From Pseudomonadota bacterium (GTDB taxonomy: Bacteria > Pseudomonadota > Gammaproteobacteria > Steroidobacterales > Woeseiaceae): a DNA stretch of 64,000 bases. Positions within the stretch are counted from its first letter, which is position 1, and every line of letters begins with the position of its first letter. Below are positions 10,443 through 19,216 of this stretch, in pieces. The stretch covers positions 994 through 64,993 of the forward strand of contig JBCCBB010000004.1 of NCBI GenBank assembly GCA_039814545.1, read 5' to 3'. The position numbers were made by a program, and so were the translations under genes. The notes below the pieces were generated by a model. That model was not told the origin of the DNA. It ran no database searches and saw nothing but the letters and a program-made list of their open reading frames with translations.

Positions 10443-11447
10443 ATGACAATCAGAAACGGCGTGTGCGCGACAGGGACGAGGCGCTTTCTCGCCTCCATCA
10501 TTCTGGCCATGCTGTCAGCAGGGGCCGGTGCCGCCGGCACGCTGGCAGGCACAGACATCGCCAATACGGCCAGTGTCAGCTACGAGCTCGACGGCAACCC
10601 GGTCACCCAGGACTCGAACACGGTCACGATCAGTGTCGCCGAGATTCTCGACGTCACGGTGGTACTCGTCAGCCCGCAGCAGTCCGTGAGCCCCGGCGAT
10701 ACTGCGCAGGCACTCGTCTTTACGGTGACCAACACGGGCAACGGCCAGGAATCGTTCGGGCTCAGCGTTGACAATGCGCTGGCCGGTGACGATTTCGACC
10801 CCATCGCCGCGAGCCCCAACATCTATTTCGACAGTGACGCGAGCGGCGACTTCAGCGCGGCTGACACGCCTTACGTACCGGGCAGCGGTGACCCCGACCT
10901 CGCGCCAGACGCTGCGATCACACTCATCGTCGTCAACGACGTTCCCACGGGTCTCGCCAACGGTGACCGCGGCACCAGTGCATTGATCGCCGTCGCTGCC
11001 ACGGGCAGTGGTGCGCCAGGCACGTTGTTCGCCGGCGCCGGCGCCGGTGGGGTCGACGCCGTGGCCGGCGCGAGCGGCGCCACCGCGACCGCGACGGGCG
11101 AATACCTCGTTTCCGACGTCGCGCTCGTCCTCAACAAAGTCGCCCTGGTGCTGGACCCGTTCGGCGGTGATCAGCCCGTACCCGGCGCCACGATTCGCTA
11201 CACGGTCACGGCCGAAGTCACGGGAACCGGGACGGCCGTCGCGGTTGCCGTCGAAGATCAGATTCCGGCCAACACGAGCTATGTCCCAGGAAGCCTCGCG
11301 CTTAACGCGGCTGGCCTCAGCGATGCCGCCGATGCTGACGCGGGCGTGTACGAGGTGGCACCGACGCCGCTCGTGCGCGTGACGCTGGGCGACCTGGCTG
11401 CCGCCGACGGTGTGCAGACCATCACTTTTGAAGTACTCATCGACTGA
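10443..11447 (+). CDS. Secreted two-module DUF11-like (conserved-repeat, Ig-like) protein; putative fibre subunit A
   Basis: ATG 10443 (alternative ATG 10398). Signal peptide MTIRNGVCATGTRRFLASIILAMLSAGAGAAG. Module signatures: FTVTNTGNGQESF and PGATIRYTVTAEVTGTG..VEDQIPANTSYVPGS. It is a collinear paralogue of 12126-13235. Confidence 0.85.
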   Translation: MTIRNGVCATGTRRFLASIILAMLSAGAGAAGTLAGTDIANTASVSYELDGNPVTQDSNTVTISVAEILDVTVVLVSPQQSVSPGDTAQALVFTVTNTGNGQESFGLSVDNALAGDDFDPIAASPNIYFDSDASGDFSAADTPYVPGSGDPDLAPDAAITLIVVNDVPTGLANGDRGTSALIAVAATGSGAPGTLFAGAGAGGVDAVAGASGATATATGEYLVSDVALVLNKVALVLDPFGGDQPVPGATIRYTVTAEVTGTGTAVAVAVEDQIPANTSYVPGSLALNAAGLSDAADADAGVYEVAPTPLVRVTLGDLAAADGVQTITFEVLID

Positions 11448-11499
11448 CGCCACCAACGAAGTGGCGATGCAACTGACAGCATTTATTAAGGAGCGAAGC

Positions 11500-19200: not shown

Positions 19201-19216
19201 TCGCGGCGACCGCTAA
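13262..19216 (+). CDS. Giant (1984 aa) multidomain outer-membrane protein: Ig-like/Cna-B-like/DUF11-like modules, internal OmpA-like domain, very large C-terminal beta-rich (barrel-like) region
   Basis: Alternative GTG starts at 13355 and 13361. Signal-like segment LLRSAVLVLAGVFGFALTAVAA. Cna-B/CarboxypepD_reg-like: GATITLVDAATGQP..AGDYRL and GVRVFLEDGRFAVTDYGGRYHLEGL. DUF11-like: GDFVRYELGLTN..VSDVPPQGFRYVAGS. OmpA-like: AVGHSD..NYALSEARA..NRRVEL (nt ~15587-15940). Invasin-Big-like: RLTANGRQRPVIGVRLLDADGQPA. About 820 aa of amphipathic strand-like sequence follows, from nt ~16760. Confidence 0.85.
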   Translation: MSERIAALALRAVAGKPAAARGRLCVRRRRAVRVAPGYVRRAPALLRSAVLVLAGVFGFALTAVAATPPGTQIDNQARALFQTDAGTPVTVLSNTASVITVFGRTPSQATFTRLAAGTVSRSETIGPVQCALNGTFTPLPAPLDGAGQPIDLTAPQTVADTGIFNTDETAFVRLDDGDQNLNGLLRETVTVTVSNAPGGDSETLTLTETGNNTGVFTGYVPLAEATPSAGNCVLETTPDSTLSISYADPADNTDASQALALVEPLSIVFDASTGQPVDGATITLVDAATGQPATVFGNDGVSTYPATVVSGAPATDAAGVVYNVPAGGYRFPVLPAGDYRLQIVPPAQFIAPSNRSVAELNTLPGAPFDLATASFGGDFTQVVDGAGDLVDVPLDPFDGGLFLSKRTTTAVAGVGDFVRYELGLTNASERVAATGITVSDVPPQGFRYVAGSARLNGNVISDPVFADATGSSFTFTLPDLPAAASATLAYVMEITPGARGRQAINIASARADRGVASNEAQVSIRLREDLFRSTSVLVGRVVEGNCTDETFTESQGVAGVRVFLEDGRFAVTDYGGRYHLEGLTPGRRVAQLDDTTVPEWLELVPCDAAPRFGGRADSQLVDLKPGLLHRADFYLKRRAPDTGAVSLELVNESGNSPDTIDYKLELTGDGNVSVEGLSATVLLPKSASLVPGTARLNGQLLPSPRQTGNAVVFVIGERAGGWRDRITFSARIDALYAGELVSRAVANFNTPATGNQRTPVGEARMLREAATTENAEYVLSLNFDVLSAELSANDRETLDALIDTWRGVYDIRLAAVGHSDADRIAARNRHVFADNYALSEARAASAARYLASALNVDSKAIEVRGFGPDRPVASNDTADGKRRNRRVELVMSGTRPGRQSVVEVTQAASGVQRVDTTGATPGPETASRNALDEKIARVTAASDEAVMVAAPGVEALGSAHGFVAPAADYQPPIPSLTVAVAHAGDSRVELSLNGAPVSNLNFDGTERSADKQHALSSWRGVDLADGDNTLIATVVDANGVVLATHRRAVHYAGQPIRGELVAKESRLTANGRQRPVIGVRLLDADGQPARAGSIGSFRVRAPYRSWFEVSRERENRLVEVGDRRPLYRVGEDGIAYLELEPTTRAGEVIVDLEFENGRQQELRTYLAPAPRDWILVGFAEGTVGYNTLRDNVNAADAAGFEDDVYTDGRVAFFAKGRIKGDALLTLAYDTRGNAVDRDGFGTEVDPDAFFTLYGDGTETRFEAASQRKLYIKLERQQFSALFGDFDTGLSVTELARYERRFNGLQVQYFGNRFTVNAFAAESDQSFQRDDIPGDGTSGLYRLSGQDIVVNSDAVRIETRDRFDASVVIASERLTRFLDYDIDYINGTLFFKRPVPSRDQDFNPLVIVAEYESRDAAEDDTIAGGRASIKALDGALEVGVTAVHENNAVDANALYGVDLAWQIDNATRLTAEYADTDRNDVSATTSGYAYKIELERATGSLDARLHHRLSDSNFGLGAQAANQLGIEATGLDVRWQHAERWFSQMSLGHQENLDTGAERQRAEAEVRYQDSRNTAFTGLAFVSDEAADGTERESSLARAGVGRSFFGDRITLRLSTEQAIDTDESIDYPSRTLVGLDWKLAQATLFAEHEVASGESIDAQTSRVGLRATPWQRAQFLTTLDNQVTEFGPRLFANIGFIQGIQIGERWTLDVGVDHSNTIIDEQSAQVFDPDRELVSGSLRADFVAAFAGALYQSDNWSANARYERRSADDEDRDTVLFGWFREPVAGHGLSAGLQYFNSDRADRGERRADLRFGWAYRKADRRWAFLDRLDLVLDEGDGLGGERRSMRFINNFNAVRRIGAAGELSLQYAFKYVDSEFDGVGYSGYTDLAGVDYRRSFRARWDWGIHGSAMTSYESGVTDYGVGVDVGFNPRDNLWLTLGYNFSGFRDEDFDDARYTAAGPYLRVTVKADQHTLNRITGRIRGDR

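Follow-up and report, generated by a model that had tools for sequence, protein, structure and literature searches.

A four-gene locus of Woeseiaceae and relatives with apparently split CLIPPER domains and a predicted giant barrel protein: a candidate outer-membrane-anchored fibre

The window analysed here is a stretch of 64,000 nucleotides (nt) from a bacterium of the Woeseiaceae (contig JBCCBB010000004.1). It holds four adjacent genes on the forward strand, here called p1, p2, p3 and p4 and together the quartet, which encode three small secreted proteins and one protein of 1984 amino acids (aa). A first-pass annotation of the window had read these genes as fibre subunits plus a dedicated outer-membrane anchor or pore. 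Our results support that arrangement and give it a more concrete basis: the small proteins appear to end in truncated CLIPPER domains, and p1, p3 and p4 start with a hairpin that may supply the missing part. The genes and the parts of the three small proteins are as follows.

10443-11447, forward strand: p1, 334 aa, secreted, two domains, predicted donor and acceptor
aa ~1-30 of p1: signal peptide
10533-10652 (aa 31-70), forward strand: predicted donor hairpin of p1
between hairpin and acceptor domain of p1: middle Ig-like domain
11097-11444 (aa 219-334), forward strand: truncated CLIPPER domain of p1, predicted acceptor
11500-11985, forward strand: p2, 161 aa, secreted, a single truncated CLIPPER domain without N-terminal hairpin, predicted acceptor only
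12126-13235, forward strand: p3, 369 aa, secreted, two domains, predicted donor and acceptor
aa 1-29 of p3: signal peptide
12213-12371 (aa 30-82), forward strand: predicted donor hairpin of p3
between hairpin and acceptor domain of p3: middle Ig-like domain
12843-13232 (aa 240-369), forward strand: truncated CLIPPER domain of p3, predicted acceptor, with a Cys325/Cys335 pair
13262-19216, forward strand: p4, 1984 aa, putative base and anchor and candidate pore

Four open reading frames on the forward strand (10398/10443-11447, 11410/11500-11985, 12063/12126-13235 and 13262-19216) correspond to p1, p2, p3 and p4. Counted from the start codons chosen in the first-pass annotation, the genes are separated by gaps of 52, 140 and 26 nt, as stated there. 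The good Shine-Dalgarno sites that it saw before the second and third gene are also found (AAGGAG for p2, AGGAGA for p3), and a hydrophobic N-terminal signal-peptide region in each protein agrees with its reading of Sec-type signal peptides on all four. As it had noted too, a motif check of the four proteins finds no lipobox, LPXTG, PEP-CTERM or RTX repeat. For p1 two in-frame ATG codons are available, at 10398 and 10443; a start at the former would extend the protein by 15 residues (MVKPGCARKSGRSRL) ahead of the signal peptide.

The Pfam family PF01345, known before as DUF11, has been renamed CLIPPER; its members have a CnaA-like fold, often with an intramolecular Lys-Asn isopeptide bond that is catalysed by an Asp, and are typical of the stalks of fibrillar adhesins (PMC12617251). 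The three small proteins had been described in the first pass as built from DUF11-type modules only. This holds insofar as DUF11/TIGR01451 is matched in all of them, but they are not plain repeats: in p1 and p3 a hairpin at the N-terminus is followed by a middle Ig-like domain and then by a truncated CLIPPER domain, and p2 is one truncated CLIPPER domain. The paralogues p1 and p3 (32% identity, E 2e-19) have a linker of ~30-45 aa between their middle and C-terminal domains. The conserved Cys pairs fit an oxidising compartment, as far as can be judged from sequence. No enzyme family was matched by the small proteins in Pfam, NCBIfam and homologue searches, which speaks against their being known periplasmic enzymes, a possibility that had been raised against a role as subunits.

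The truncation is seen in several ways. Out of the 114 positions of the Pfam DUF11 profile, p1 covers 12-72, p2 4-53, p3 15-56 and p4 4-113. The matches of p1, p2 and p3 are confined to the N-terminal half to two thirds of the profile, so these proteins are regarded as truncated members of the CLIPPER family. The complete domain in p4 serves as a reference: aa 403-523 match DUF11 at E 1e-11 and, in a profile search, PDB entry 9IFR at E 9.7e-6. When aligned by hhalign to the 133 columns of this complete domain, the C-terminal domains of p1 and p3 occupy columns 2-98 and 1-98 (probability 96-97%, E 1e-9 to 1e-10), so that their C-termini lie at column 98; p2 aligns with a probability of 96.9% (E 1.4e-10). 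All three proteins stop right after the strand that precedes the last two of a complete domain, with ...TITFEVLID in p1, ...FARFRARLN in p2 and ...LVVRFRVTIN in p3 running directly into the stop codon. Conservation of domain ends and hairpins was evaluated in 54 to 69 orthologues per protein (54 for p1, 61 for p2, 61 for p3 and 69 for p4). The same terminal column is used by every p2 orthologue (61/61, ...RFRA.LN), by 50 of the 54 p1 orthologues and by most p3 orthologues; the remainder extend by 13 residues at most.

The part that is lacking at the C-termini seems to be present at the N-termini. An A-x-A signal-peptidase site lies in the orthologues directly before a conserved mature N-terminal motif, which reads AGT.AGT.I.N.A.V.Y...(loop)...SN/..F.V(D/E) in p1 and p3 and A.PPG..I.N.A.(V/L).Y...G....SN.V in p4. 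The complete CLIPPER domain of p4 (aa 398-530) ends with ...ATLAYVMEIT PGARGRQAINIASARADRGVASNEAQVSIRL, and judging from this end the N-terminal hairpin motif corresponds to the last two CLIPPER strands, including the strand that bears the Asn. Correspondingly, the best local hhalign alignments of the p1 and p4 hairpins fall on columns 99-133 of the complete domain (E 0.089 and 0.0074). The three hairpins are mutually homologous (p4 against p1 and p3: E 6e-13 and 3e-15). Their first Asn is kept in 61/61 orthologues of p3 (Asn40), 65/69 of p4 (Asn75) and 39/54 of p1, and the p4 hairpin also conserves Ser93-Asn94. A six-frame translation of the window contains the motif only three times, at the mature N-termini of p1, p3 and p4; p2 has no hairpin motif.

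Chimeric sequences point in the same direction for p1. If its C-terminal domain is joined to its own hairpin, the DUF11 score increases from 24.9 to 29.5 bits with coverage extending from 12-73 to 12-111 of 114, and the DUF7619 score increases from 14.8 to 22.0 bits, whereas nothing is gained from a reversed hairpin on the same domain. For p3 and p2 the chimeras give a mixed picture: the DUF7619 scores rise, but the DUF11 score of p3 does not. In the acceptor domains the Lys of the first strand is at least 95% conserved (K232 in p1, K251 in p3), and the Asp of a v.D.iP motif is conserved in p1 (Asp271) and p3. Read from sequence, p1 and p3 are thus predicted to be both donor and acceptor, p2 acceptor only and p4 donor only. 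This makes p2 a candidate distal cap or tip.

The large protein combines the third of these hairpins with a stalk, an OmpA-like module and a long beta-rich C-terminal part. Its features, all on the forward strand, are listed below.

aa 1-64: signal peptide, cleavage after ~aa 64
13454-13573 (aa 65-104): predicted donor hairpin
aa ~105-780: stalk of Ig-like modules
within the stalk: Cys130/Cys232 domain
aa 262-345: transthyretin-like domain
14453-14851 (aa 398-530): complete CLIPPER domain with conserved Lys, Asp and Asn
within the stalk: SdrD_B-like and CLIPPER_2-like domains
15608-15916 (aa 783-885): OmpA-like peptidoglycan-binding domain (PF00691)
aa ~886-960: linker of low confidence in the AlphaFold2 (AF2) model
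16142-16795 (aa 961-1178): two Ig-like domains
aa ~1183-1260: helices and a hairpin
aa ~1210-1400: most conserved segment of the family, with motifs AFFAKGRIKG and GDGTSGLYRL
17066-17461 (aa ~1269-1400): conserved beta domain of ~130 aa
17468-19159 (aa ~1403-1966): ~30 long beta-strands predicted by AF2, of predicted transmembrane type
aa 1970-1982: short helix

The OmpA-like domain that the first pass had placed inside p4 is clearly recovered by PF00691 (44.8 bits against a cut-off of 27.2, E 1.7e-11) and matches many OmpA-like domains in the PDB; peptidoglycan binding is predicted from the sequence. A CarboxypepD_reg-like domain is also present in p4 (Pfam/NCBIfam). The C-terminus had been taken for about 820 aa of beta-strand-like sequence. 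It is indeed beta-rich, but it resolves into the beta domain of ~130 aa and the ~30 strands, and two Ig-like domains precede both. The AF2 model of aa 900-1984 has a predicted local distance difference test score (pLDDT) of 77.8 and a predicted template modelling score (pTM) of 0.68. Within the Cys130/Cys232 domain, aa ~148-232 (nt ~13700-13960) hold a conserved D.DQN.D....LTETG..TGVF.GY motif, and this domain matches a segment of PDB entry 8c8k, a 'Cell surface protein', at a profile E of 1.4e-5.

Comparison of the orthologues shows which parts of p4 can vary. The OmpA module and the preceding CLIPPER_2-like domain (aa ~640-953) are missing in orthologues of the same genomic context, and the OmpA module is therefore optional. 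The hairpin is found at the extreme N-terminus in every length variant, including cadherin-bearing proteins of 2300-3050 aa (up to 3049 aa). The variable length and the adhesin domains of the stalk speak for an extracellular N-terminal part, with the hairpin at its distal tip.

The subunit genes and p4 are separated by a structured element.

13289-13326 (element to 13336), forward strand: GC-rich stem-loop of 17 bp (15 G-C pairs) with a tetraloop, followed by GCGTTTGTGT

It was found in a scan for terminator-like structures, after the stop codon of p3 and ahead of the signal peptide of p4. In 53 loci there is a counterpart of this hairpin whose sequence differs. The median of the lowest minimum free energy per 60 nt is -38.2 kcal/mol at this region, against -26.9 kcal/mol for segments of the same length inside the p4 coding sequence, and 94% of the loci fall below the 5th percentile of this control. 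A U-tract after the stem is not consistently present across the loci, and a canonical intrinsic terminator after p3 was rejected for that reason. Given a conserved stem and no conserved U-tract, we use the terms stem-loop or attenuator only. The element is a candidate attenuator or transcript-end stabiliser that might uncouple the expression of the subunits from that of p4, so that p1-p3 are produced in surplus. In the pap and fim operons, too, the subunit genes are followed by a hairpin and this by the gene of an outer-membrane protein. The first ~38 codons of the p4 reading frame (13262-13378) overlap the stem-loop and are not conserved as protein. As a consequence the start of p4 is uncertain: it may be the ATG at 13262, with GGAG 12 nt upstream, or a GTG at 13355 or 13361 just before the signal peptide. 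In the Woeseiaceae loci a RGEQ.FPPRHVW stretch is conserved in the translation upstream of the signal peptide; this looks like a conserved Shine-Dalgarno and start region rather than protein.

The first-pass annotation had proposed to examine whether the four genes keep together in other genomes. A tblastn comparison of the four window proteins with all fetched loci finds p1-p2-p3-p4 in the same order and on the same strand in 57 of them, and every fetched locus with enough upstream DNA holds at least p2-p3-p4. The quartet ranges over Woeseiaceae, Steroidobacteraceae (including the cultured Povalibacter uvarum DSM 26723), Lysobacterales, one metagenome-assembled genome of the Pseudomonadales and Desulfosudis oleivorans. 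Locus L008 shares 95-99% identity with the window, and a Woeseiaceae chromosome of 5.8 Mb keeps the order with the same yoaA-tsaB-phoBR neighbours. The order is also kept in the Pseudomonadales genome, where the large protein has 3036 aa and cadherin repeats, and in D. oleivorans, with sizes of 346, 167, 376 and 2118 aa. A scan of GTDB with one genome per species gave at least 582 matching stretches, and the best 80 of these belong to Woeseiaceae, Steroidobacteraceae and Lysobacterales.

Full-length homologues of p4 itself number in the hundreds, and all carry no other name than 'OmpA family protein' or 'TIGR01451 repeat protein'. An exhaustive HMMER search with the C-terminal 785 aa of p4, the barrel module, collects 3143 clusters (50% identity) at E<=1e-3, of which 1207 reach E<=1e-30; almost without exception the match falls on the C-terminal part of a protein 1600-3000 aa long. 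No Pfam, NCBIfam, PDB-sequence or literature entry describes any of the 1207 clusters. Nor do the distant loci have an accessory gene in common, be it for a chaperone, a sortase or an ATPase.

Some loci depart from the four-gene layout. In three from Steroidobacteraceae or related bacteria (L054, L063 and L082) only p2-p3-p4 are apparent; the large protein is shorter in its N-terminal half and no separate p1 is found within 10 kb upstream, so the number of subunit genes varies. In D. oleivorans (L001, CP000859) an extra CLIPPER protein of 612 aa is encoded at 16357-18195, its start overlapping the stop of the large gene. Upstream of that quartet, at 3407-6851, lie an unannotated protein of 349 aa and an insertion sequence (DDE_Tnp_1), and downstream follow a cohesin-like gene cluster and a pair of a PAS histidine kinase and a response regulator with HD domain. 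The extra 612-aa and 349-aa proteins could be additional subunits. In a Woeseiaceae chromosome (L003) a GAF sigma-54 activator gene at 4214-6610 lies directly upstream of p1, a position where the window has no such gene; it may regulate the locus in that lineage.

We then compared p4 with known families. Its last ~1085 aa match no usher, autotransporter, LptD or other Pfam family at E<=10, and PDB sequence searches, both single-sequence and profile, leave the C-terminal ~1000 aa unmatched. Matches in these PDB searches are limited to the OmpA domain, 9IFR (the complete CLIPPER domain) and one cell-surface protein. There is accordingly no confident homology to an usher, an autotransporter, intimin or LptD, the families that the first pass had singled out as possible relatives of p4. 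With Foldseek the C-terminal model retrieves from the PDB SlpA of Deinococcus (top), LptD, SprA, FimD/PapC, TonB-dependent transporters and MtrB at template modelling (TM) scores of ~0.1-0.3, the best matches being barrels of 24 to 36 strands. A model of p3 retrieves only generic tandem Ig-like proteins (TM <=0.37), among them integrin calf domains, AgI/II C-terminal domains and the donor-strand-complemented CfaB and Saf fusions. For both AF2 models the matches are generic and hence allow no family assignment.

Individual pathways can be considered one at a time. The type Va autotransporter barrel PF03797, which has 12 strands and follows a passenger and a linker helix, gives no Pfam match; in p4 ~30 strands are predicted, and OmpA and Ig-like domains stand between stalk and barrel. 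For type Ve inverse autotransporters (intimin/invasin), in which a LysM domain and a 12-strand barrel come before a Big_1 passenger, there is no match to the inverse autotransporter barrel and the domain order of p4 is reversed; p4 shows faint Big_1 and Invasin_D3 matches (E 0.04-0.09) over ~30 residues. LptD, SprA and TonB-dependent transporters have no Pfam or PDB-sequence match, and their Foldseek TM scores are 0.09-0.28. Sortase pili are not indicated: the four proteins contain no LPXTG, and no sortase is encoded in the locus or flanks. Domains of curli (CsgG/E/F), Fap (FapF) or type IV pili (PilQ/PilB type) are absent from the four proteins and their immediate neighbours, and a PapD-like chaperone was found neither in the window locus and its flanks nor among the called genes of related loci. 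The first-pass statement that the locus has no PapD-like chaperone, usher, sortase, type IV pilus, curli or Fap gene therefore stands.

The quartet might nonetheless be a divergent chaperone-usher system, with p4 as an elaborated usher, p2 as a minimal chaperone and p1/p3 as pilins. FimD and PapC are indeed among the Foldseek matches of p4 (E 1.5e-5 to 7e-5), CfaB and Saf pilin fusions are among those of p3, and subunit genes, hairpin and outer-membrane protein follow each other as in pap/fim operons. We consider this explanation highly improbable. Neither PF00577 (usher, with a 24-strand barrel, a plug and N- and C-terminal domains) nor a PapD-like domain is matched even at E<=10, the structural similarity to FimD/PapC is weak (TM 0.16-0.31), and ~30 strands are predicted instead of 24. 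Moreover, a chaperone would need a donor strand, and it is just this that p2 lacks, and the subunit fold is CnaA-like and not the pilin fold.

Another explanation is that p4 works alone, as a giant porin that also tethers the outer membrane to peptidoglycan (in the manner of SlpA/OmpM) or as a self-exporting autotransporter-like adhesin. The small proteins would then merely be co-regulated periplasmic or surface accessories, with no strand exchange. The Deinococcus SlpA barrel has 30 strands and belongs to such a tether, p4 possesses an OmpA-like domain, and its CLIPPER/cadherin stalk resembles that of single-chain fibrillar adhesins, for example of Acinetobacter silvestris, with an OmpA-like anchor (PMC12617251). 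Yet the TM score is only ~0.2, p4 has no SLH domain and its OmpA module is dispensable in orthologues of the same context. This explanation also leaves the complementary truncations and hairpins, as well as the strict co-occurrence of the small genes, unexplained, and we regard it as improbable. Overall, the quartet is not a member of any described family, whereas its assembly principle does have precedents. No published description of the locus was found in the searched literature on DUF11/CLIPPER, donor strands, isopeptides, ushers and the outer membrane. Two single-chain cases, the 'grappling hook' DUF11 protein of Litorilinea and the anchors of F-ENA, were set aside as unrelated.

Our preferred reading is a self-contained fibre, anchored in the outer membrane and built by donor-hairpin complementation of a split CLIPPER domain; we see this reading as evenly poised. 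The hairpin of one protein would complete the truncated CLIPPER domain of another, giving a head-to-tail chain that starts at the tip of the p4 stalk, continues with (p1/p3)n and ends with p2. p2 would then be the distal cap and p4 the donor-only base. A spontaneous Lys-Asn isopeptide between chains may lock the fibre, like a natural SpyTag/SpyCatcher. While still in the periplasm the subunits would probably be closed by self-complementation and act as their own chaperones, a step that fits the confident AF2 monomer of p3. The giant barrel of p4 might pass the stalk and attached subunits across the outer membrane, the OmpA module would tie the base to peptidoglycan and the stem-loop after p3 would let the subunits be made in excess over p4. 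In these bacteria of sediment and soil the fibre would probably serve to attach cells to particles or surfaces. We consider a narrower claim likely, namely that at least p2 or p1/p3 are joined to the N-terminus of p4 by hairpin complementation between molecules. Donor-strand fibres with self-complemented monomers and inter-subunit isopeptides have precedents in threads (PMC9715654), tafi (PMC11821415) and TasA (PMC9674648).

Several observations weigh against the fibre. The profile alignments between hairpins and CLIPPER domain are short and weak (E 0.007-0.09), the weakness being due to their shortness, and in hhalign the p3 hairpin aligns out of register. The p3 chimera lowers the DUF11 score while raising that of DUF7619. 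The hairpin Asn is not universal, as 12 of the 54 p1 orthologues have Ser, and p2 has Asn in place of the catalytic-type Asp (ITNP) and a poorly conserved Lys; covalent locking can therefore not be general. Mean-field direct coupling analysis of 232 p1/p3 sequences (effective number 159), aimed at the contact partner of the hairpin, does not single one out: the top 150 pairs include 10 between hairpin and C-terminal domain and 8 between hairpin and middle domain, and the subfamily signal dominates. The OmpA module lies between stalk and barrel, which means that the chain must re-cross the outer membrane if the stalk is outside. Finally, no dedicated periplasmic chaperone is encoded at the locus.

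The structure prediction of p3 adds a further point. Mature p3, modelled by AF2 with 100 homologues, reaches a pLDDT of 96.7 and a pTM of 0.83, and its N-terminal 50 aa have a pLDDT of 92-97; a packed hairpin within the monomer is thus predicted. Such a compact and confident monomer is equally compatible with permanent complementation in cis, without any polymer. In that case the hairpin of p1 and p3 would permanently complete their own C-terminal CLIPPER domain, yielding very stable, circularly permuted two-domain monomers with an intramolecular isopeptide. Only p2 would pair in trans, with the p4 hairpin, and p4 decorated with p2 would be a fibrillar adhesin; p1 and p3 would be secreted or would coat the surface, perhaps with the barrel as their export route. 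Apart from the monomer model, the linker of ~30-45 aa would permit the fold-back, the triad of Lys, Asp and Asn is conserved within one chain, and the use documented for CLIPPER domains is an isopeptide within one molecule (PMC12617251).

We nevertheless judge closed monomers unlikely. AlphaFold also gives closed, self-complemented monomers for true donor-strand fibres, both threads (PMC9715654) and tafi (PMC11821415). p1, p3 and p4 have closely homologous hairpins, and at least that of p4 would have to act in trans, because sequence searches detect no truncated CLIPPER acceptor in p4, where the only clear CLIPPER match is complete and structure modelling covered aa 900-1984. The stem-loop suggests an excess of subunits over p4. 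Furthermore, the next domain follows directly after the hairpin, as in tandem stalks, which fits a beads-on-a-string polymer.

If the fibre reading is right, the quartet would work like the chaperone-usher pili (Fim/Pap, with FimD/PapC, FimC/PapD, FimA/PapA, FimH/PapG and PapH). Both have Sec-exported subunits. In the pili an N-terminal donor element completes the incomplete Ig-like fold of a neighbour, and the same is proposed for the quartet. Both have one acceptor-only, tip-like component and one donor-only component that resembles a terminator or anchor, roles that are predicted in the quartet, and in both the operon also holds the gene of a large outer-membrane beta-barrel (a predicted one in the quartet), set off from the subunit genes by a hairpin. 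The quartet differs in having no sequence or convincing fold homology to these pili and no PapD-like chaperone. Its donor would be a two-strand hairpin that rebuilds a CnaA-like CLIPPER domain, with covalent locking possible, and its barrel has ~30 predicted strands instead of 24 and is fused to the stalk, the donor hairpin and an optional OmpA module.

Sortase pili (SpaA, Spy0128, RrgB) share with the quartet CnaA/CnaB-type isopeptide domains, a division into tip, shaft and base and subunits linked through Lys, the latter being proposed for the quartet. They differ since the quartet has neither sortase nor LPXTG, so that linkage would be autocatalytic inside the reconstituted domain; the quartet also occurs in diderms, with an outer-membrane barrel as anchor instead of peptidoglycan. 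SpyTag/SpyCatcher shows the same split of a Cna-type domain into a fragment with the reactive Asn/Asp and a fragment with Lys and catalytic acid, followed by spontaneous ligation. That pair was engineered from an intact CnaB domain, whereas the split in the quartet would be natural, CnaA-like and serve polymerisation.

The archaeal threads (Saci_0406), tafi and TasA/TapA resemble the quartet in their N-terminal donor strand, closed monomers and cap or initiator subunits (PMC9715654, PMC11821415, PMC9674648), and threads have inter-subunit isopeptides (PMC9715654). These fibres have other folds and no outer-membrane component, while the quartet would use a truncated CLIPPER domain as acceptor and a two-strand donor, with a giant outer-membrane protein as its base. 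The adhesin B9T28_05395 of Acinetobacter silvestris (PDB 9IFR) likewise has a stalk of CLIPPER and cadherin-like domains as well as an OmpA-like peptidoglycan-binding module, but its description has the OmpA-like anchor at the C-terminus, without a C-terminal barrel, and names no split domains or partner subunits (PMC12617251). SlpA/OmpM tethers, such as the 30-strand SlpA of D. radiodurans, combine a peptidoglycan-binding module with a very large C-terminal barrel as p4 does. The module in SlpA is SLH and not OmpA-like, the TM score to p4 is ~0.2, and SlpA lacks an adhesin-like stalk and partner subunits.

The genes around the quartet are housekeeping genes, as the first-pass annotation had it.

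7632-9470, reverse strand: pckG, upstream flank
9583-10191, reverse strand: phasin, upstream flank
start at 19235 or 19244, 18-27 nt past p4: DinG/YoaA-like helicase, downstream flank
beyond the helicase: tsaB, then phoB/phoR, downstream flank

The base composition is flat across the locus. A mobile-element origin was rejected on account of this lack of a composition shift and of the same housekeeping context in related genomes. Between p4 and the helicase (19216-19244) there is no terminator-like structure, and the same adjacency is seen in L003 and in a second related locus (L085), so read-through into the housekeeping genes is possible. The 5' untranslated region between phasin (~10192) and p1, ~200-250 nt in length, has no Rfam match, and no riboswitch or other known RNA was found in the 5' regions. 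Just 3' of pckG an intrinsic terminator is located at 9476-9509 on the reverse strand, with a stem of 14 bp followed by T7. The reverse strand at 9472-9595 also has a sub-threshold Rfam match to the alphaproteobacterial small RNA ar14 (35.9 bits against a gathering score of 58.8), which is probably driven by the pckG terminator. At 6711-7619 on the forward strand an adenylate/guanylate cyclase catalytic domain is fused to an FHA domain; this cyclase-FHA gene is also found beside pckG and the quartet in L085.

The proposed model is directly testable, since cultured carriers exist in Povalibacter uvarum DSM 26723 and Desulfosudis oleivorans Hxd3, and the quartet could supply natural, orthogonal tag/catcher pairs for protein ligation. 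If the model is true, it would add a new Gram-negative fibre-assembly pathway beside chaperone-usher, curli, type IV and type V systems, joining donor-strand logic, Cna-type isopeptide chemistry and a giant barrel fused to the fibre base, which were formerly separate. More tentatively, and in our view somewhat unlikely in this full form, the quartet might represent a widespread diderm pilus that works by hairpin exchange without chaperone, usher or sortase, with an intermolecular Lys-Asn isopeptide and export through its own barrel of ~30 strands; the export part would, if true, constitute a new outer-membrane secretion and assembly route. A confirmed fibre would also give a function to more than 1200 clusters that are annotated only as 'OmpA family protein' or 'hypothetical'. 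The quartet belongs to the core genes of abundant sediment and soil lineages (Woeseiaceae and Steroidobacteraceae), for which attachment to particles matters.

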